From: Clostridiales bacterium
GTDB lineage: Bacteria; Bacillota; Clostridia; Oscillospirales; Oscillospiraceae
Length of the DNA stretch: 64,000 nt
Assembly: GCA_019418025.1 (NCBI GenBank)
Contig: DYCR01000003.1
Span: forward strand, 7,438 to 71,437
Direction of reading: 5' to 3'
Positions 1 to 61,062 of this stretch are shown here, in pieces (positions within the stretch are counted from its first letter, which is position 1; each line of letters opens with the position of its first letter). The notes beneath the pieces were generated by a model. It had not been told where the DNA came from. It worked only from the letters and a program-made list of their open reading frames with translations, and did not search any database. A program made the translations under genes and the position numbers.

Positions 1-781
1 TATGCTGCAATTCGCCACCATGCATGAATTGCGTCCTGTTTTTGTATTCACCTTCTTTGAATCGATCGGTATAGGCCACGGAGAAAGTCCGATCTGTAAT
101 ACGAAGCTGTTCGATCCTATCTATCCGGTAAATTGTCGGATACGGATCATTTTTCTTTGCAAAGTGAGATTTTGTGTCGCTATCCACAATTAATCCCATT
201 AAATAGAAATAGTATTCAGAAAATAGGATTCCTACAGGTTGGATTTCTCTGATTATCGTCTTACTTCCTTGTAATCGTTTGTATGTCAAGATAACAGTAT
301 GTTTTGAATCAATGGCTTGAACGATTTCCCACAGAAAATCCGCGTTAAAATAGCCGTGTGCCGGATCAATGTAATGAAACAACTCGTTTTTCAATATTTT
401 CTTAAGTGCTTGACTATCTGTTGTAGATACACTCATACAAAGCAGACGATCGATGATTGAAGCTAAATCTGCTTTGGTATATGCACGGCTTTCAACTAAT
501 ATCTTACAAATAGAGAGTAACTCTCCTCTTGTGAGAAACTCATAATTTTGAGTCACAAGACGATAACCATGTGCATTATGATCATATTCGATACTCTGAC
601 TCATTCCACTTTCTCGCAGTTGTTCAGATAAGAATGCCCTGATCGTGTCTATATCTCGCTGAATAGATCGCTCATTTACATTATAGAGTAAAGCCATTTC
701 ATGTTTTTTTACTACTTTTCCTGACAGAAATGCACGATAAAGTTCAAGGACACGGTTACTTTTGGGACTGGACATACTCAT
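1..781 (-). CDS. HTH + WYL-domain transcriptional regulator, C-terminus cut by window edge (absent from supplied ORF track)
   Basis: Hand check: minus-strand frame from ATG at 781 (GGAAAGGGAA upstream) has no stop in 260 codons down to nt 2. Translation MSMSSPKSNRVLELYRAFLSGKVVKKHEMALLYNVNERSIQRDIDTIRAFL... (DeoR-type HTH), then ...TVILTYKRLQGSKTIIREIQPVGILFSEYYFYLMGL (WYL-like). Confidence 0.7.
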   Translation of the reverse strand, partial: MSMSSPKSNRVLELYRAFLSGKVVKKHEMALLYNVNERSIQRDIDTIRAFLSEQLRESGMSQSIEYDHNAHGYRLVTQNYEFLTRGELLSICKILVESRAYTKADLASIIDRLLCMSVSTTDSQALKKILKNELFHYIDPAHGYFNADFLWEIVQAIDSKHTVILTYKRLQGSKTIIREIQPVGILFSEYYFYLMGLIVDSDTKSHFAKKNDPYPTIYRIDRIEQLRITDRTFSVAYTDRFKEGEYKNRTQFMHGGELQH

Positions 782-991
782 AGTGTTCCCTTTCCGTAGT
801 GTAGAGCATATACTTCTATCTTTAAATATAGCAGCATAGTTGGACAGTAATTGTCATCTCCTTAAAAATCTGCCCCGCACTTTCTACTCTCTCATTATGT
901 CGTATTACCAATTTATTCCATTATATTTGGTAATACCAGATAAATCAAGTAGCTTTCTCCATATAATGACCTTATATAGGAGGTGGGTAGC

Positions 992-1237
992 TTGAAACCA
1001 AGGAAACTAGAGCTTGGCAATCGGAACCTAATTGGTGCCCGCGTTACCGAAGCCAGAAAAAGTCATGGAATGAAACAAGTAGAGCTACTTGCCAAATTGC
1101 AACTAGCCGGGGTGGATTTAAGCGTTCCTGCACTTTCGCTGCTAGAAGGTCAAAAACGTCCGGTATCTGATATTGAATTAAATGCCCTAGCAGACATCTT
1201 GAATGTGTCTGTGGACTGGTTATTGGGCAGAAAGTAA
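992..1237 (+). CDS. Small XRE/Cro-CI-type HTH regulator
   Basis: ORF 983..1237. AGGAGG at 978-983 favours the in-frame TTG at 992. Motif NLIGARVTEARKSHGMKQVELLAKLQLAGVDLSVPALSLLEGQKR is typical HTH_3. Divergent from the WYL gene. Confidence 0.75.
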   Translation: MKPRKLELGNRNLIGARVTEARKSHGMKQVELLAKLQLAGVDLSVPALSLLEGQKRPVSDIELNALADILNVSVDWLLGRK

Positions 1238-1351
1238 GAAAACATCCACCCTTAGATGAGCACAACAGCTCACACAGGAGTGGATGTTTTTCGTTGACGA
1301 TACTGACTGCTCTTTGGCTGAAATAGGCAAGCCAAATGCAGCGGACTTTTA

Positions 1352-2845
1352 TCACTTCAAATATAACGGATTGGTCTGGTAGGTCTGTTTCGGACTTCTT
1401 GGATGATTGGGAATCGATAAGAGAATGACATTCTTCTTCACCAAGGGATCAATATAGCGTTTGATCGCATACTGCACACTGGCGATCTGAAGATAATCGC
1501 TGACTTCCTTGCGTGTTCTGGGAACTGCACAGAATTCTAACAAGCCCTTATCATCATTGACATTTTGCATCGATACGGATGTTACCTCTGTCATCGGTGC
1601 AATCTTCTGGGCACTGCGGTCGTTATAAAGGCACACAGAAAATTCTCCCCGCAAATCATTAAATACAGGTTCCGGAAGATCGAGGTCCCACATTGCACGA
1701 CGAATGCGAGGAATACCAGAATAACGATTCTCCGTTTGACCCAATGCTTCCATTGTTGTCACAAGAACAGGATTTCGGGTATCAGGTTGAATTTTTCCCA
1801 GTTGATCCAGCGTCAGACGACCATACAAACCACCTGGATTGTGAATTTCCAAACGGTCAGAAAACATGATGATCTGAATCGGCATATTCTCTGTGTGCGG
1901 GCTGTAATCCCTGTGGACCAATGCATTCAGAACAGACTCACGAACAGCGTCCAGTGGGTATTCGGGGATATCCCTGCGAACACCTGTGGAAGGGTCAATA
2001 CGCAGTGCTGTGCGCATATTTATTCTGACAAATCCGACGGCAGTCTCCAACATTTCTTGCAGTGTTCCCTCAATCCGTTTGCTGTCAGAGAAACGCTGTC
2101 CTGCATCGTCCAGCGTTCCCATCTCCGTTCCCGGCACACTTGAGGCAATAATACTCAGCTGTGGAAAATACGCCTGGGGATATGGGCAGAAAAGCAGCAC
2201 CGCCGAAAGCGTAACTTTACCTTCTCTCGTGATACCGGTTAACTCATATAACTGCTCCAACGGCAGTGCCGCCAAATTGGGACGATCCAGCTTGCGTTTC
2301 AGAAGGTATTGTTCCAGCTTGATCTGATCCAAGCCGATGATTGATACCCCATCAACCGGACGAATATCGTCCCTCGTCTTTTTGCGGTAAGCCTCATAGC
2401 TGTACACTTCATATTCCGTCATCGGCTTGTCTGCATCCCCAACCCGAATATAAGCGCCTTTCAGCCGTCCCTTTGCTTCCTTAAAACAGGGACGCTCGGT
2501 GAGGTCCACAGGCGGGATCTCCGCTATAACAAAGACTTTCCCATCCACATCAAACACACTGAGGATTGGATGTACCTTTGGGGACATAGACTCCCCTACT
2601 TCCATCAGCTTTTTTTGAAGATCCTGAGCATCATAGATACCAACCTTCTGAAAATTCTGCTTTTCATCAATTCCAAAGACGATAATCCCGCCCTCGTCCT
2701 GATTGGAAAAAGAAGAGAAGGTGTCATAGAGCCTTTCCGGACAGCCTTTGGCTGCCGCTTTGATTTCCAGTGTCTGTTCTTCACATCTTCGTGTTTCAAT
2801 TCGCTCTAATAATTTAGCAAACTCCTCATACAACATAAAACTCAC
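1352..2845 (-). CDS. AlbA_2 (Schlafen-like) DNA-binding domain + HATPase_c_4-like domain + C-terminal wHTH protein (COG2865 type, often mislabelled RecG-like)
   Basis: 497-aa ORF. N-terminus E..TLEIKAAAKG...EGGIIVFGIDE, central ...RESVLNALVHRDYS...IQIIMFSDRLEIHNPGGL... matches my memory of this family. AT-rich codon usage unlike the rest of the window. Confidence 0.6.
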   Translation of the reverse strand: MSFMLYEEFAKLLERIETRRCEEQTLEIKAAAKGCPERLYDTFSSFSNQDEGGIIVFGIDEKQNFQKVGIYDAQDLQKKLMEVGESMSPKVHPILSVFDVDGKVFVIAEIPPVDLTERPCFKEAKGRLKGAYIRVGDADKPMTEYEVYSYEAYRKKTRDDIRPVDGVSIIGLDQIKLEQYLLKRKLDRPNLAALPLEQLYELTGITREGKVTLSAVLLFCPYPQAYFPQLSIIASSVPGTEMGTLDDAGQRFSDSKRIEGTLQEMLETAVGFVRINMRTALRIDPSTGVRRDIPEYPLDAVRESVLNALVHRDYSPHTENMPIQIIMFSDRLEIHNPGGLYGRLTLDQLGKIQPDTRNPVLVTTMEALGQTENRYSGIPRIRRAMWDLDLPEPVFNDLRGEFSVCLYNDRSAQKIAPMTEVTSVSMQNVNDDKGLLEFCAVPRTRKEVSDYLQIASVQYAIKRYIDPLVKKNVILLSIPNHPRSPKQTYQTNPLYLK

Positions 2846-2997
2846 CTCTTCTAGATCAACTATATCACAACAACATAAGAAAGTAAATCAATAAGTAAAC
2901 AATTTTATTTATGTTGTTTTCTTATTTTCACTATAACATAACAAACAAGAGAAAAAAAGTGAAATGAAGAACACGACATCTGATCTCCTATCCCCTG

Positions 2998-3255
2998 CTA
3001 AATGGTAACGGTGGCTATGTACCGAATATCCATTTCATGGCTGACAGCAGTACGGTTGTTTCTGGTAAATATCATATTTCGTATGGGTTTCATCTTCTTG
3101 ACCATCTGGCCGCCGACGGAGCCGGCCTCACGGGAGGTCAGGTGACCGTTGTAGCCGTTGCTCAGGTTCACGCCGACCTCGCTTGCTGCCTGCATCTTGA
3201 ACTTGTCCATTGCGTCTCTTGCTTCGGGAATGTTGATCTGATTGTTGCTCTTCAT
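2998..3255 (-). CDS. alpha/beta-type small acid-soluble spore protein
   Basis: Internal ATG at 3255 preceded by AGGAGAG. MKSNNQINIPEARDAMDKFKMQAASEVGVNLSNGYNGHLTSREAGSVGGQMVKKM carries the SASP signature. C-terminal tail is longer than usual. Confidence 0.75.
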   Translation of the reverse strand: MKSNNQINIPEARDAMDKFKMQAASEVGVNLSNGYNGHLTSREAGSVGGQMVKKMKPIRNMIFTRNNRTAVSHEMDIRYIATVTI

Positions 3256-3444
3256 AATGTTTCTCTCCTTTTCACATCTCTCGGGAAGAAACCGTTTCCC
3301 GAGAGAAACAATTTCTTTCCGTACTCCTATCTTAACCCATATTCGGGTGCATATTCTGTGTAAAAATTCCCATTTCTGCATATGGATGGCATTTCATCAG
3401 GCTTTGCTTCCTTCTGTTTATCATGATCTGCCATTTGAAAAATT

Positions 3445-3484
3445 TTATCAAAAAAGCCGAACCGCCGGAGATGGCGGTTCGGCT
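3445..3484 (-). terminator. Intrinsic terminator after the CoA-binding protein gene
   Basis: Minus strand reads AGCCGAACCGCC-ATCTCC-GGCGGTTCGGCT followed by TTTTTTGAT. Confidence 0.7.
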
Positions 3485-3564
3485 TGCATGTCATGCACAG
3501 GGCGGCATTTGGCAGCACGATATGATTTTACACGACCCGAAAAGCCGTACTCCTGCCCTGCCTT

Positions 3565-3924
3565 TCAGGCTTTTGCATACTGAGACAGACCCACCAGCAG
3601 ACAGCCGTGGATATAGGGGAGCTTCTGCTCGTCAAGCCACGCGAGCAGCGCAGGGTCGTCTGCACCGGGCTGAATGACGATGCACCGGAAGGGCTTTTGA
3701 TTCTCCTGAAGCAGCTTCAGCCCCTTCACCGGATGGATGCACAGGTCGATCACATCGATCTGCCCTTGGATATCATTGATCGAAGCAAGCTCCTTACCCA
3801 CGCAGTGGACCGTGTATCCGGCATCGAGCATCCGGTGCTTGATCTTGTATGCGTATTTCTCCGGGTTCAGCGTGTCCCCCAATACGGCAAAGTGTTTTTG
3901 CTCCATGATTTCTTTCAGTTCCAT
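3565..3924 (-). CDS. CoA-binding domain protein (YccU/YneT-like)
   Basis: ATG at 3924 behind a GGGGG RBS. MELKEIMEQKHFAVLGDTLNPEKYAYKI...VIDLCIHP...IVIQPGA is typical of the CoA_binding_2 family. Confidence 0.7.
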   Translation of the reverse strand: MELKEIMEQKHFAVLGDTLNPEKYAYKIKHRMLDAGYTVHCVGKELASINDIQGQIDVIDLCIHPVKGLKLLQENQKPFRCIVIQPGADDPALLAWLDEQKLPYIHGCLLVGLSQYAKA

Positions 3925-4044
3925 AGGAATTACCCCCTTTTTCCGCCAGTATATCACCGCCGGATGGGTAAAACTGTGACATCATCACAAAAGCCCAGAA
4001 GGGCAGAAAAAATCGCCCACCCCTGCGCAAGCAGGAGCGGGTGA

Positions 4045-4245
4045 CCGAGACTGCCCCAAACCCCTTTCAGGGCTTTCGGGCAATTTTTACAGCCTGACCC
4101 GCGCATAATTTCTCCGTCTATGACGGAGAAATTCCACACTCTCAGGCTGAGCAGTATGTTCCCCGAGGTACACGCCCCCGTGGAACATAATTTCTATCTT
4201 TTTGCCGCTGAGGCGGCAAACTCTGTGAGACTATTTGATACGCTG
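4045..4245 (-). repeat. ~200-bp interspersed structured element, copy 1 (diverged flanking direct repeats 4011-4044 / 4246-4280)
   Basis: Aligns end to end with the cores at 11386-11584, 14834-15036, 22247-22446 and 30865-31068. Flanked by two imperfect copies of the hairpin AATCGCCCACCCCTGC-loop-GCAGGxxCGGGxGA. Confidence 0.85.
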
Positions 4246-4326
4246 AATCGCCCACCCCTGCATAAGCAGGGACGGGCGATCTTTCGAAACACAATGAACA
4301 AATACGGAGATAATGGCGTTTGAAAA

Positions 4327-11322: not shown

Positions 11323-11385
11323 GGCGAAGCTTCCCGAAGTGGCTTCGGGAAGTCTAAAAAAAGACCACCGCTTTTGCGGTGGTCT

Positions 11386-11584
11386 GAGACTGCCCGAAAA
11401 CCCTCTTAGGGCTTTCGGGCAATTTTTACAACCTGATCCGCGCATAATTTGTCCGTCATTGACGGACAAATTCCACACTCTCAGGCTGATATGTATTTTC
11501 CCCGAGGTACACGCCCCCGGGGAAAATGATTTAATCTTTTTTGCCGCTCAAGCGGCAAACGCGGGCAGACTGTTTGACAGGCTG
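11386..11584 (-). repeat. ~200-bp interspersed structured element, copy 2 (perfect 27-bp flanking direct repeats 11359-11385 / 11585-11611)
   Basis: Core alignment with the other copies. Both flanks read AAAAGACCACCGCTTTTGCGGTGGTCT, the terminator hairpin of the hydrolase gene. Confidence 0.9.
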
Positions 11585-11617
11585 AAAAGACCACCGCTTT
11601 TGCGGTGGTCTTTTCTG

Positions 11618-13966: not shown

Positions 13967-14821
13967 ATGAATTACCAAATCGAACCCCTTGATTTCGACC
14001 ATCCCTCCCAAAAAAGGATCGCAACCGGCGAAAGCTACGGCATTTTACTGGTGATCAAAGGCATCGCCCGGGTGGGCAAACGGTGGAAGGTCGGCACCGA
14101 CGACCTGCTGGTGTGCAAGCCCAAGCAGGTGCTGATGCTGGAGCAGACCAGCGAACGCTTCCCCCTCAGCGCCCTGTGGGTGCAGATCTCCGAGAAGGTG
14201 ATGCGCGTCTGCTCCACCCCGAAAACCGACATCATCGAAAGCTTCAATATCAATCCCGAGCCCGTGGCCCGCATTCGGGGCCAGAGCGAGATCCTCTCCC
14301 TCATCAAAAGCCTTGCTTCCCAGATGGCCCACATGCAGCAGCAGGAGCAGCGGCAGCGGTACGGGGCAGATCTTCTGGAGGAAAGCTCCGTCAAGATGTT
14401 TCTGGCACTGGTCATTCGGGCCTGCATCCTGTCAGACCTGCATCTGGTGCAGCGCAGCGGTCATCTCGCCATCGACGAGGTGTTCCGCTATATCCACTCC
14501 CACCTGACCGAGGAGCTGACTCTGGAGCATTTGGAGCAGGAATTTTTCGTCAGCCGCCACCATTTGATCCGCCTGTTCAAGCGCCGCTGCGGTCTGACCA
14601 TCCATCAGTACATTATAAAAGCACGTCTGGATCTGTGCCGCACCTATATCGAGCAGGGATATTCCATCACAGAGGTCTACCGCAAGGGCGGTTTCGGCGG
14701 ATACAACCACTTTTTCCGAGCATTTAAGCAGGAATACGGCATGACCCCCAAGGAATACTACCGCAGCATCTACCCAACCCCGACAGCGCCGCCCGAAGCA
14801 AACCGCCCGACTGCCGAGTAA
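13967..14821 (+). CDS. AraC-family regulator
   Basis: C-terminal HTH_18 (...HQYIIKARLDLCRTYIEQGYSITEVYRKGGFGGYNHFFRAFKQEYGMTPKEY). Divergent from the GPH-esterase pair. The stop codon lies inside the duplicated hairpin of repeat copy 3. Confidence 0.85.
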   Translation: MNYQIEPLDFDHPSQKRIATGESYGILLVIKGIARVGKRWKVGTDDLLVCKPKQVLMLEQTSERFPLSALWVQISEKVMRVCSTPKTDIIESFNINPEPVARIRGQSEILSLIKSLASQMAHMQQQEQRQRYGADLLEESSVKMFLALVIRACILSDLHLVQRSGHLAIDEVFRYIHSHLTEELTLEHLEQEFFVSRHHLIRLFKRRCGLTIHQYIIKARLDLCRTYIEQGYSITEVYRKGGFGGYNHFFRAFKQEYGMTPKEYYRSIYPTPTAPPEANRPTAE

Positions 14822-14833
14822 CGGCAATCGGGC

Positions 14834-15036
14834 AAACAGCGTATCAATTGGTCTCACAGAGTTTGCCGCCTTGGCGGCAAAAAAGATAAAATCATGTTCC
14901 GCGGGGGCGTGTACCTCGGGGAACATACTGCTCAGCCTGAGAGTGTGGAATCCGTCCGTCTCCGGCGGACGGATTATGCGCATGTCAGGCTGCAAAAATT
15001 GCCCGAAAGCCCCGGAAGGGGGGTTCGGGCAGACTG
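14834..15036 (+). repeat. ~200-bp interspersed structured element, copy 3 (perfect 32-bp flanking direct repeats 14802-14833 / 15037-15068)
   Basis: Both flanks read ACCGCCCGACTGCCGAGTAACGGCAATCGGGC. The left copy encodes the AraC C-terminus ...RPTAE plus its stop. Confidence 0.9.
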
Positions 15037-15094
15037 ACCGCCCGACTGCCGAGTAACGGCAATCGGGCGGTTTCGCTTTATTTTGCAGGAGAGA

Positions 15095-22192: not shown

Positions 22193-22216
22193 TTGGCAAA
22201 ACATCATAAGAAACAA

Positions 22217-22247
22217 ACACCGCCCTGTATTGCACAGGGCGGTGTTT
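22217..22247 (+). terminator. Terminator-like hairpin after the GH112 gene
   Basis: ACACCGCCCTGT-ATTG-CACAGGGCGGTGT followed only by TT before repeat copy 4 begins. Confidence 0.5.
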
Positions 22248-22446
22248 CAGTGTGTCAAAAAGTCTCACAGAGTTTGCCGCTTGAGCGGCAAAAAAGACCA
22301 AATCATTTTCCACGGGGGCGTGTACCTCGGGGAAAATACATATCAGCCTGAGAGTGTGGAATTTGTCCGTCATTGACGGACAAATTATGCGCGGGTCAGG
22401 CTGCAAAAATGCCCGAAAACCCTAAGAGGGTTTTCGGGCAGACTGA
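22247..22446 (+). repeat. ~200-bp interspersed structured element, copy 4 (no flanking duplication; sits between two different convergent terminator hairpins)
   Basis: H1 22273-22292, H2 22304-22337, CAGCCTGA 22344-22351 pairing with TCAGGCTG 22396-22403, H3 22361-22387, H4 22411-22439. Confidence 0.9.
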
Positions 22447-22496
22447 AAGCCGGACAGCATGCATCATGCTGTCCGGCTTTTGTTAGGAAGGCTTGA

Positions 22497-24290: not shown

Positions 24291-24535
24291 TGATAAGCCT
24301 CCTAAATTCATTGGTAGAGCATGTAATTTCGAATGCTGAACTTATACTAGCATAGATAGGGTCAGTTTTCAACTGTGATTCCATACAAATATATCGATAC
24401 TAAAAGGCATTTTATATATGAAAATTGGGAAATATTGCACAATGTTTGAGCTATCTGTAAAATATCGAGAATTCTGTCGGGATTTGTTGACTTTTCCCCT
24501 GTAATGTGTTACGCTTTTGTTACAGATAAATAAAC

Positions 24536-24601
24536 GCTGATATAAATTTGGATATATGGCCCAAATGTTTCTACCGTACAGCCACAGGTACGACTATTAG
24601 C
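24536..24601 (+). promoter_or_regulatory. Purine riboswitch aptamer, guanine-type (C in J3/1)
   Basis: GCUGAUA-UAAA-UUUGG-AUAUAUGG-CCCAAA-UGUUUCUAC-CGUAC-AGCCACAG-GUACG-AC-UAUUAGC. This parallels B. subtilis xpt (..AUAUAAU..GGAUAUGG..GUUUCUACC..GACUAU..). P1 is 7 bp. Confidence 0.8.
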
Positions 24602-24607
24602 AGATTT

Positions 24608-24645
24608 GACACGTTTTTCCGGAAAAGGTGTCGGATTTTCTATTT
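24608..24645 (+). terminator. Candidate riboswitch expression-platform terminator
   Basis: GACACGTTTT-TCCGG-AAAAGGTGTC followed by GGATTTTCTATTT. Confidence 0.5.
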
Positions 24646-30699: not shown

Positions 30700-30864
30700 A
30701 AATGCTTGAATCCTTTCTCAGGGGGGAGTATCCATGAGGCATAATATCCTGATGTGTATAGCATACTATGATAATATACCGAATTTCCCCCAAAAAATCA
30801 AGCCGTTTCCACCCATCTCCCGTCTCCGGCAGAAAAAAGCCGGTCACTGCTCAGGCAGCGACCG

Positions 30865-31068
30865 ACCGCAGCGTGTCAAGGAGCCTGCCAGAATGTTCCG
30901 CTTTTGCGGCAAAAAGATAGAAATCATGTTCCCCGGGGGCGTGTACCTCGGGGAACATACTGCTCAGCCTGAGAGTGTGGAATTTCCCCGTCAGTGACGG
31001 GGAAATTATGCGCGGGTCAGGCTGTAAAAATTGCCCGAAAGCCCTGAAAGGGGGTTTCGGGCAATATT
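30865..31068 (+). repeat. ~200-bp interspersed structured element, copy 5 (perfect 28-bp flanking direct repeats 30837-30864 / 31069-31096; variant left arm)
   Basis: Both flanks read AAGCCGGTCACTGCTCAGGCAGCGACCG, the nahK terminator hairpin. Core aligns with the other copies from H1 onward. Confidence 0.9.
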
Positions 31069-31108
31069 AAGCCGGTCACTGCTCAGGCAGCGACCGGCTG
31101 AAAGGGTC

Positions 31109-32233
31109 TTACTTTGCGTACTTTGCAACAACGGCATGCATGGCATCAAACTGCTCTTCCATGTCCTTGACCAGCTTGAACTGGGTACGGCAGCGGTCCA
31201 GATTATGCTCCGGACGATGGATGCGGAAGTAGTGGTCACCGTCAAGATAGTCGGTCAGGAAGCGGATACCGCACTCCAGTGTCATCAGACGGGCGCCCCA
31301 AGGCAGGTACTCCAGTTCCTCCTTGGTCAGGCCGCCGTCGGCTCCCTCCAAAAAGCCCCGGGTGAACACCTCGTACAGACCAATATCGAAGTTGACCTTG
31401 GACAGATCCTTCTCATCCTCAGCGGAGTTGTTCGCACCAAAGCGGATGGAGTCGCCGAAGTCGTTCATGGACAGACCGGGCATAGTGGTATCCAGATCGA
31501 TGACACAGATGCCCTCACCGGTGGCACGGTCCACCAGAATGTTGTTCAGCTTGGTGTCATTGTGGGTCACCCGCAGGGGCAGCTTGCCCTCACGCAGGGC
31601 CTGCAGGGCAACCGAGCAGTCGGCCTTGCGGTCACGGACGAACCGGATCTCCTCGGCAACATCCTTGGCCCGATCCATCTTGTCAGCTGCCAGAGCCGCC
31701 TCAAACTTTGCATAGCGGTCCTCGGTGTCATGGAACTTCACGATGGTCTCGTGGAGGGTCTGGGCAGGGTAGCCGTTCAGCAGCTTCTGGAAGCGGCCGA
31801 AGGCCCGTGCCGAAGCCTCGAACAGCTCGGGGGTCGCCTTCTGGAAGCAGTCGGTGCCCTCGATGAAGGGGGTCAGTCTCCAGACCTTGCCGTTGGAATC
31901 GGTGTAGAAGTCCCTGCCCTCCTTGGTTTTCACCAGAGACAGGGTCTCGCGCATGGGATCACCGCCGTTGGCTGTGATCTTTTCACGCAGGAAGGAGGTG
32001 ATGCCCACAAAGTTCTCCATCAACTCCTCCGGATGGGGGAAGGCAGCACTGGACAGGCCCTGCAAAATGAAGCGGACGGCATCGCCCTCCTGAGGCTGGC
32101 AGACCACGCAGAAGGTGTCGTTGATGTGGCCCTGACCGTAGCGGACTGCGCCCAGCAGGGTCCCAGGGAACTGGTAAGCGGCGAGAACCTCTTGCAGGAT
32201 CTGGTCATCTGCCGGAATAAAGGGTGTGTTCAT
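31109..32233 (-). CDS. nahK: N-acetylhexosamine 1-kinase
   Basis: 374 aa. LPLRVTHNDTKLNNILVD...IDLDTTMPG...FGDSIRFGAN...LECGIRFLTDYL..PEHNL closely parallels Bifidobacterium NahK as I recall it. Confidence 0.85.
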   Translation of the reverse strand: MNTPFIPADDQILQEVLAAYQFPGTLLGAVRYGQGHINDTFCVVCQPQEGDAVRFILQGLSSAAFPHPEELMENFVGITSFLREKITANGGDPMRETLSLVKTKEGRDFYTDSNGKVWRLTPFIEGTDCFQKATPELFEASARAFGRFQKLLNGYPAQTLHETIVKFHDTEDRYAKFEAALAADKMDRAKDVAEEIRFVRDRKADCSVALQALREGKLPLRVTHNDTKLNNILVDRATGEGICVIDLDTTMPGLSMNDFGDSIRFGANNSAEDEKDLSKVNFDIGLYEVFTRGFLEGADGGLTKEELEYLPWGARLMTLECGIRFLTDYLDGDHYFRIHRPEHNLDRCRTQFKLVKDMEEQFDAMHAVVAKYAK

Positions 32234-33367: not shown

Positions 33368-33584
33368 GTTATACCTCCTTTTCCGATCCGCAAAGCCGAA
33401 CAGCTGTATGGGGCCACGGCCCTTGCCGTTTCCAAAATACTCTCATTTTCCACAATATATCGCAGGATAAACGCCGTTTTGCTGTTCAGTTTCACGATAA
33501 ATACATGATACTATGCCCCCCTTATGCTTGTCAATGAATGGTGTCTGGTTTTATGCTTAATAATTTTAAAAGATCCCCTTCTTT

Positions 33585-33627
33585 AAAAAATGCCCAAAAG
33601 CCCTTTTAGGGCTTTCGGGCAGACCGA
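33585..33627 (+). repeat. Solo right-end fragment of the ~200-bp element
   Basis: AAAAAATGCCCAAAAGCCCTTTTAGGGCTTTCGGGCAGACCGA matches the last ~43 nt of the full copies. Followed by the host hairpin AGCGGCAGTCAG..CTGACTGCCGCT (33628-33660). Confidence 0.6.
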
Positions 33628-60986: not shown

Positions 60987-61062
60987 GGACGATTAGCTCA
61001 GCTGGTAGAGCATGCGCTTGACGTGCGCAGGGTCAGCGGTTCGAGTCCGTTATCGTCCACCA
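60987..61062 (+). tRNA. tRNA-Val (anticodon GAC), CCA encoded
   Basis: Hand-folded cloverleaf: acceptor GGACGAT/ATCGTCC, D arm GCTC..GAGC, anticodon stem TGCGC/GCGCA with loop TTGACGT, T arm AGCGG-TTCGAGT-CCGTT, then A-CCA. Confidence 0.9.

Follow-up and report, generated by a model that had tools for sequence, protein, structure and literature searches.

A family of short structured repeats in gut Oscillospiraceae, probably miniature elements with IS1182-type ends, that inserts at terminator hairpins and duplicates them

Terminator hairpins are the targets of IS1272, an insertion sequence (IS) of the IS1182 family, which enters them in either orientation and shows no sequence specificity (PMC5678879, PMC4923244). 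The model published for this element predicts duplication of the stem-loop when the 3' ends of the element attack the 5' feet (PMC5678879, PMC4923244). Among small repeats, bcr1 of the Bacillus cereus group is a structured MITE (a miniature transposable element with inverted repeats) with compensatory changes (PMC3184786). Here we describe a family of structured repeats of about 200 bp, found in a 64,000-nucleotide stretch of contig DYCR01000003.1 (assembly GCA_019418025.1, a Clostridiales bacterium of the Oscillospiraceae), hereafter the window. We consider it probable, at roughly 80%, that the repeat is a non-autonomous MITE with IS1182-family ends, which targets hairpins, duplicates them and carries a structured passenger interior. 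No description of the family was found in the literature searched.

An earlier note on the window, made from the sequence alone, had reported five full copies that align end to end and are all intergenic, and both the alignment and the gene-context check agreed. Copy 1 (4045-4245, minus strand, 201 bp; nhmmer E=3e-67) and copy 2 (11386-11584, minus, 199 bp) are followed by copy 3 (14834-15036, plus, 203 bp; alignment and nhmmer), copy 4 (22247-22446, plus, 200 bp) and copy 5 (30865-31068, plus, 204 bp), so that all five are confined to the first 31 kb. Two core motifs of 20-22 nt occur exactly five times each in the window and about zero times in dinucleotide-preserving shuffles. A truncated sixth piece at 33584-33627 (plus), consisting of a hairpin like the last helix of the element (H4, below) and the right end, adjoins a terminator hairpin.

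The copies had also been described as abutting terminator hairpins. They do, but in copies 1, 2, 3 and 5 these hairpins are target-site duplications. Direct repeats flank four of the five copies, perfect ones of 27, 32 and 28 bp at copies 2, 3 and 5 and a decayed one of 34 bp at copy 1, and every one of them is a complete local terminator hairpin. The hairpin sequence differs from copy to copy, and therefore the repeats derive from the target and not from the element. At copy 2 the upstream duplication AGACCACCGCAAAAGCGGTGGTCTTTT (11585-11611, minus) comprises the entire stem-loop, and its downstream counterpart (11359-11385, minus) is followed by the remaining T-run. Copy 3 lies between the perfect duplicates of ACCGCCCGACTGCCGAGTAACGGCAATCGGGC at 14802-14833 and 15037-15068 (both plus), the second followed by GGTTT...TTTT, and copy 5 between those of AAGCCGGTCACTGCTCAGGCAGCGACCG at 30837-30864 and 31069-31096 (both plus). 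At copy 1 the upstream hairpin (4246-4279, minus) is an old repeat with several mismatches (score 19), and the downstream hairpin (4011-4044, minus) retains its T-run, with a terminator-like site at 4041-4016. Copy 4 stands between convergent genes and has differing hairpins at its two ends: the terminator hairpin of the upstream gene (22215-22246, plus) touches its left end and a second, different one (22447-22480, plus) its right end. Copy 5 lies in antisense orientation to an APH-family gene (31109-32233, minus); a 509-aa open reading frame (ORF) upstream of this copy was found to be spurious.

In a syntenic relative (locus L159) a single hairpin, ...CTAAAAAAGACCACCGCTTTTGCGGTGGTCTTTTCTG..., stands exactly where copy 2 of the window reads hairpin-element-hairpin. 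This empty site proves insertion with a 27-bp duplication at copy 2. The site of copy 3 in the same relative holds one orthologous but diverged hairpin.

Outside the window, a distant BLAST search placed the element at about 32 sites of about 70% identity in one Vescimonas fastidiosa record. Metagenome contigs scanned for the pattern gave at least 120 with the element, most of the named records being human-gut metagenome assemblies; it is also present in Oscillospiraceae genome assemblies, and further scans of viral contigs added just a few copies and variants. The density is about one copy per 27 kb in one Vescimonas record versus five copies in 31 kb of the window. At one site on orthologous (pro)phage contigs from IMG/VR a full element (L150, 2183-2384) corresponds to an internally deleted version of about 95 bp (L167, 8986-9077); the element therefore also travels on phage-like DNA.

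Distinct complete copies pooled from all loci numbered 119, and 29 of these have flanking duplications of 18-43 bp (median 31). When flanks from different copies were paired as mismatched controls, the score never exceeded 11. The duplicated unit was in all 29 cases a complete palindromic stem-loop, often with A and T tracts, and only 2 of 51 precisely delimited copies had no flanking hairpin at either end. Insertion is structure-directed: its joining points are the two feet of the target stem-loop, which leads to duplication of the whole hairpin. Several copies that do not have an exact duplication are flanked by two diverged versions of one hairpin or by a duplicate of the 5' arm only, and we read the copies without an exact duplication as aged duplications or one-foot insertions. 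The neighbouring genes were convergent at 45 copies, tandem at 44 (20 with the element in sense and 24 in antisense) and divergent at 5; since copies lie mostly between convergent or tandem genes and almost never between divergent ones, the target is the terminator and the orientation is random. An initial impression from the five window copies, that of a co-oriented element of the 3' untranslated region (3'UTR), failed on 109 copies. After insertion the hairpin copy that a transcript reaches first is often short of part of its T-run, the distal copy keeping it, and this makes read-through of transcripts into the element plausible. No conserved target tetranucleotide was found at the left flank.

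Copies bounded by their own duplications are 193-231 bp long, with a median of 201. Across the 119 copies the ends read 5'-CAGC(G/T)TGTCAAAAA...TTTTTGACAGTCTC-3', and the duplication-delimited copies terminate in TTTTT(C)GACAGTCTC, which forms an imperfect terminal inverted repeat with the left end: the right end in reverse complement is GAGACTGTC(A/G)AAAA, against CAGC(G/T)TGTCAAAAA at the left. The element has no coding capacity, and its variation tracks base-pairing and not codons. Solo perfect palindromes made of two joined element ends, CAGCTTGTCAAAAAAGnCTTTTTTGACAAGCTG, occur at L143 4057-4090, L031 186-220 and L043 3357-3390; they may be minimal elements or deletion remnants.

A candidate partner IS was reached by way of AphA-3, which led to enterococcal plasmids and there to a truncated gene for an IS1182 transposase that carries no annotation (NF033551, E=5e-49). 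This gene encodes the N-terminal 224 aa of the transposase at 4021-4695 of L192 (NZ_CP065550.1, an E. faecium plasmid), between erm(B) and the aadE-sat4-aphA-3 cluster; a staphylococcal aphA-3 plasmid held IS257 only and yielded no IS1182 probe. With the E. faecium-derived probe, tblastn against 1.78 Mb of collected DNA matched one contig, L061. It carries at 1827-3345 an IS of 1,519 bp with the ends CAGCTTGTCAAAAAAC and CAGCCTGTCAAAGAAC and an ORF of 475 aa. The 475-aa protein scores 382 bits (cut-off 270) against the NCBIfam equivalog model of IS1182, NF033551, over model positions 11-488 of 488, contains the domains DUF772 (PF05598), DDE_Tnp_1 (PF01609) and DDE_Tnp_1_6 (PF13751), and has more than 6,000 relatives in the protein collection. 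Direct repeats listed for the IS1182 family in ISfinder range from 0 to 60 bp.

On L061 one hairpin has the left end of the IS at one of its feet and a copy of the 200-bp element at the other. Full-length IS copies of 1,518-1,526 bp with the same ends were found at other sites, and at these independent sites the IS is flanked by duplicated whole hairpins (32-36, 29 and 23 bp) or, like window copy 4, by two different hairpins. The IS and the structured element have their terminal 14-17 nt in common, with up to 15 of 15 positions identical at both ends (MITE (C/G)AGNNTGTCAAAAA versus IS CAGCTTGTCAAAAAAC), and unrelated interiors. The ends of the structured element and the outcome of its insertion are thus those of a DDE IS of the IS1182 family. 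That family assignment follows from the model match and from stem-loop targets without a sequence consensus; the deletion of the stem-loop without duplication that is typical of IS1272 was not seen with the partner IS, which is a difference in behaviour and not one of membership.

Several further observations were made on these loci. On L203, positions 2233-2425 hold a second MITE, unrelated and about 190 bp long, with the same IS1182-type ends (CAGCGTGTCGAAAAAG...TTTTTCAACAGTCTG), and one hairpin present there in three copies separates this MITE from a tandem IS. The right end of the IS on L061 lies inside an IS3-type orfB-like gene (1176-1973, plus), and therefore the IS had inserted into another IS; no obvious strong hairpin is seen at that site. 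The 65-nt leader of the IS (L061 3345-3280, minus; L213 5934-6000) folds as CCCCCGTTTC-TGGTATAATAAAA-GAAACGGGGG, so that the loop contains a -10-like TATAAT and the 3' arm contains the ribosome-binding site, and looks like a control on transposase expression. Searches for an autonomous element with end motifs and half elements over 1.18 Mb gave mini-derivatives, two IS ends of L061 being among the matches. Clustering of the flanking ORFs around the 119 copies gave no recurrent transposase or other protein family. A scan for palindrome duplications around larger inserts matched only an unrelated low-GC insert of 1.3 kb beside an element copy (L139, 2667-4275), whose borders are formed by an approximately 45-bp repeat comprising the last codons (..DDE*) of two different ORFs and the terminator hairpin.

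The suggestion of the earlier note that the repeat is a mobile non-autonomous element is borne out by the empty site, the long flanking duplications and the terminal inverted repeats held in common with an IS of the IS1182 family. The element is small and non-coding, and it has terminal inverted repeats, a target-site duplication, presence or absence between relatives and a cognate IS, all of which are expected of a MITE; the duplication of 18-43 bp is atypically long for one. In the mechanism that we propose from these sequence comparisons, the 475-aa DDE transposase of the IS would be supplied in trans and mobilise the MITE. It would choose its targets by structure, namely palindromic stem-loops of intrinsic terminators, probably extruded as cruciforms, whose capture would bring the two hairpin feet next to each other in space. 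Gap repair would then duplicate the entire hairpin and leave the order hairpin-element-hairpin.

The interior is conserved as a fold. Minimum-free-energy folding of copy 4 returns the architecture given in the earlier note, with helices H1 and H2, a stem enclosing H3, and H4 (z-score -9.6). In this copy, all on the plus strand, the fold places H1 at 22273-22292 and H2, with covariation in all 10 pairs, at 22305-22337; the enclosing stem, an invariant GUGU/GCGC helix with two U.G pairs and H3 occupy 22344-22403, and H4 lies at 22410-22440, its 3' arm containing the right terminal inverted repeat. The folding energy of copy 4 is -103 kcal/mol, versus -89 on the opposite strand. Two-sided changes of the H2 and H3 stems among the five window copies were found as claimed, and the proposed selection on secondary structure gained strong support from the larger alignment, in which 97.6% of the cells hold standard pairs (32 pairs, 110 distinct copies) and 26 of the 32 pairs have changed on both sides. 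Changes on both sides total 467 cells, none of 500 shuffles matched the observed values, and sliding the partner columns by 1-3 lowered pairing to 37-50%. H1 and H4, analysed sequence by sequence, take 54 and 94 distinct perfect hairpin forms, respectively. Three single-stranded blocks, GCCUCGCAGAG, AAGUGUGGAAUUU and AAAUUAUGCGCGCAG, are near-invariant. The two U.G pairs are fixed, G.U and A.C stand at about 53:17 at variable pairs, and in 94 of 109 copies the given strand folds more stably than its complement; this G.U excess and strand stability point to one folded strand, either RNA or single-stranded DNA, the counts being phylogenetically non-independent.

Rfam 15, which the earlier note had proposed to search, gave no match on the window element at gathering thresholds or on copy 4 at E<=10, nor in 12 loci with diverged members. 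A mutual-information search for pseudoknots turned up nothing beyond lengthened known helices and loop variants specific to subfamilies. No conserved promoter was found; the sole candidate, a weak TTGCCG-18-TAAAAT in copy 3, is not conserved because its -35 hexamer lies in the covarying helix H1. Derivation of the interior from the leader of the parent IS was ruled out, the 65-nt leader being unrelated.

The interior varies by modules within the family. In a variant subfamily (L098 702-912, minus; L117 3433-3648, plus; L104 4897-5102, plus) the near-invariant GGAAUUU/AAAUUAU helix is replaced by GCGCGCC/GGCGCGU, a fully compensated swap, and in all three contigs a canonical copy lies within about 1 kb. 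Modular variation is further seen at L168 1-226 (minus) and at L032, L050, L102 and L135. One such variant retains the left end, H1 and H2 and has the enclosing stem and H3 swapped for an unrelated segment, and in others 40-60 nt are inserted between H1 and H2 or inside H2.

To judge from the IS and the second MITE, whose interiors are unrelated, the folded interior is probably dispensable for recognition by the transposase. We regard it as a passenger module that is not derived from the IS and is kept by selection on one folded strand. For its role we would suggest first, though with low confidence, an action as RNA within read-through transcripts. It could instead be a small RNA that hitch-hikes, or a module that renders insertions at terminators harmless. 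In order of preference we would place an RNA-level passenger in read-through transcripts before a cis-enhancer of mobilisation, and the latter before a stand-alone small-RNA gene. More specifically, the five-helix interior could be a functional RNA or single strand hitch-hiking between IS1182-type ends, as a mobile small-RNA or 3'-end module or as a cis-acting cofactor of capture, a tentative idea that we think possible but would not favour. If true, it would be a type of cargo or cofactor not described for bacterial MITEs, and in each genome of these abundant human-gut Oscillospiraceae dozens of terminator sites would receive a small-RNA or 3'-end module.

Several points weigh against a hairpin-duplicating MITE with a passenger interior. 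Most copies have no exact duplication, and IS1272 itself deletes the stem-loop instead of duplicating it. The partner IS was not found in the window, and neither a transposase nor a multi-copy IS was found in 350 kb of Vescimonas fastidiosa, which has 12 old copies of the element. The proposed link between the IS and the MITE draws on their common ends, their identical insertion behaviour and one contig with both. A passenger interior does not account for the invariant loops and the roughly 3:1 ratio of G.U over A.C, nor for conservation across subfamilies that differ at about one third of positions. Finally, about 25% of copies are antisense in tandem pairs, where read-through cannot give the sense RNA, and no promoter is conserved that could do so.

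The alternative that survives best holds that the interior fold is needed in cis, a folded DNA or RNA strand recruiting the structure-seeking transposase, so that the repeat would be an RNA- or structure-assisted transposon and not a passenger MITE. It would explain deep covariation and invariant loops in copies whose only common selective filter is proliferation, as well as the strand bias in pairs and in stability, and it suits a transposase that recognises hairpins as targets. The IS and the second same-ended MITE nevertheless insert alike with unrelated interiors, and internally deleted mini-versions exist, but only in place at sites of full copies. On balance we judge a fold acting in cis to be unlikely. 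The related suggestion in the earlier note, that the hairpins of the element are recognised as DNA, is not supported as far as the transposase is concerned: these interior hairpins are missing from the parent IS and from the second MITE that shares its ends. For insertion it is the target's own hairpins that count.

Much less probable is a stand-alone family of small-RNA genes, derived from 3'UTRs or with a promoter of their own, that spread by duplication or recombination and are flanked by their own terminators. The covariation is strongly RNA-like, and a few copies without transposon ends run directly into a hairpin and T-run (L037/L039/L102, L100/L103, L104, L134). The empty site, however, assigns the hairpin to the target, and the flanking hairpins match within a copy and differ between copies; moreover, the terminal inverted repeats are identical to IS ends. 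The earlier idea of a small RNA derived from the 3'UTR was abandoned on the random orientation (20 sense versus 24 antisense copies in tandem pairs) and on the lack of a conserved promoter. Its guide-like RNA was likewise given up: the longest word common to an element and its own target averaged 6.5 nt versus 6.7 nt in mismatched controls, so that there is no target complementarity, and the loops are invariant although the targets differ. Guide RNAs are encoded beside a recombinase or nuclease gene, and near the 119 copies no protein family recurs.

We give very little credence to a SINE-like retroposon, in which a reverse transcriptase would copy a structured RNA into nicks at terminator hairpins and leave duplications of variable length. 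Duplications of 18-43 bp, a structured RNA with strand bias and the one 5'-truncated copy (33584-33627) would fit, but the terminal inverted repeats are common to a DDE transposon that makes the same duplications, the duplication borders follow the hairpin feet, and neither an A-rich tail nor a reverse transcriptase near any copy was found. Hardly more credible is insertion by a Cas1-type, casposase-like integrase that measures across the palindrome as in the duplication of CRISPR repeats: the duplicated palindromes of 18-43 bp are within the size range of CRISPR repeats and the geometry, with attack on the 5' border of each strand, is the same, but no cas1 gene was seen near any copy, and a second enzyme is unnecessary because the same-ended DDE IS produces the same duplications. 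Least probable of all is RNA-guided mobility (IS110 bridge RNA, IS200/IS605 omega RNA) or HUH single-stranded-DNA mobility (as in REPIN/RAYT), which is suggested by a size and multi-helix architecture similar to bridge and omega RNAs and by the association with palindromes, as in IS110/IS1111 elements that target repetitive extragenic palindromes (REPs), and is refuted by the empty site, the lack of complementarity between element and target and the duplications made by the IS, the long target duplications and the left flank without a conserved tetranucleotide being a further misfit, with no match to HEARO or another Rfam family and no recombinase, TnpB or RAYT gene found nearby.

The genes beside the copies in the window encode a PfkB kinase, a hydrolase, an AraC regulator, a lacto-N-biose phosphorylase and an APH-family kinase; among the ORFs tested, namely most of those above 300 aa and the neighbours of the copies, none was found to encode a transposase, reverse transcriptase or recombinase. 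Positions 1-4000, adjoining copy 1, have a GC content of 44% against about 55% in the remaining window and contain a small helix-turn-helix ORF (983-1237) and, at 1352-2845 (minus), the gene of a protein of 497 aa whose domains are Schlafen/AlbA_2, HATPase_c_4 and Fic-like_C; this segment is probably an acquired island. The sole Rfam matches in the window are a purine riboswitch aptamer at 24518-24616 (plus, 57.8 bits) and a tRNA gene at 60987-61059 (plus). The first 350 kb of NZ_AP023416.1 (L160-L166), labelled as plasmid pMM35_01 of Vescimonas fastidiosa, carry dnaA, dnaN, gyrA/B, groEL and dnaK, and the record looks like a chromosome despite its label. It also carries other REP-like families of palindromes, CGTAGGGGC...GCCCCTACG, GAATCCCCCAGTCACGGCTTCGCCGTGCC... 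and CTGTCATTGCGAA....

Structured MITEs with compensatory changes and the targeting of hairpins by IS1182 relatives were already known. New here are the element family itself, natural evidence for duplication of whole terminators by an IS1182-type element and its MITEs, and an interior that is conserved and covaries across subfamilies. The finding accounts for a frequent, unannotated repeat in abundant Clostridia of the human gut. Duplication of a whole stem-loop, an outcome only proposed in the literature consulted (PMC5678879), is represented by 29 copies of the small element and by IS copies at several further sites, and these natural duplications therefore support a structure-directed, cruciform-type capture of the target. 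Duplicated terminators and a fold of about 200 nt at gene ends may alter termination, read-through and mRNA stability of many genes. With its sharp ends and empty sites, the element is also usable as a strain marker.

Among the described systems the IS1182-family insertion sequences are the nearest, especially IS1272 and TnSha1 of staphylococci (PMC5678879, PMC4923244); like the partner IS, IS1272 inserts in both orientations at terminator stem-loops chosen by structure and without a consensus. With IS1272 and TnSha1 the stem-loop is lost by deletion and no duplication remains, whereas the element described here duplicates the whole stem-loop, which is 'pathway b' of the published model; TnSha1 demonstrates that foreign DNA situated between the IS and an alternative left repeat can be moved by this family. 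In contrast to both, the window element is only 200 bp long and has no transposase gene. bcr1 resembles the element in its length (about 155-200 bp), multiple intergenic copies, variable presence in relatives and compensated multi-stem fold, a likeness of description and not a claim of sequence relation. Its direct repeats are 5 bp and no targeting of hairpins is known for it, and unlike bcr1 the element has invariant loop blocks, a fold conserved across genera and a candidate partner IS.

REPs and bacterial interspersed mosaic elements (BIMEs), REPINs with their RAYT, and the REP-targeting IS110/IS1111 elements occur, like our element, in many copies and in association with extragenic palindromes near the ends of genes. 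REPs are themselves palindromes of 20-40 bp, moved by HUH enzymes without target duplication; the element is a unit of 200 bp with DDE-type inverted repeats, and the palindrome serves as its target and becomes duplicated. Class C group II introns likewise prefer terminator stem-loops as insertion sites, but are retroelements with a ribozyme and a reverse transcriptase and make no duplication, and group II intron models gave no match in the Rfam scans of the window element. CRISPR spacer and casposon integration, too, duplicates a partly palindromic stretch some tens of bp long on both sides of the inserted DNA, through staggered attacks on its two borders (PMC5137440); the enzyme there is Cas1 and here would be a DDE transposase with no part for cas genes, and the length of the duplication made by the element is not fixed but follows that of each hairpin.

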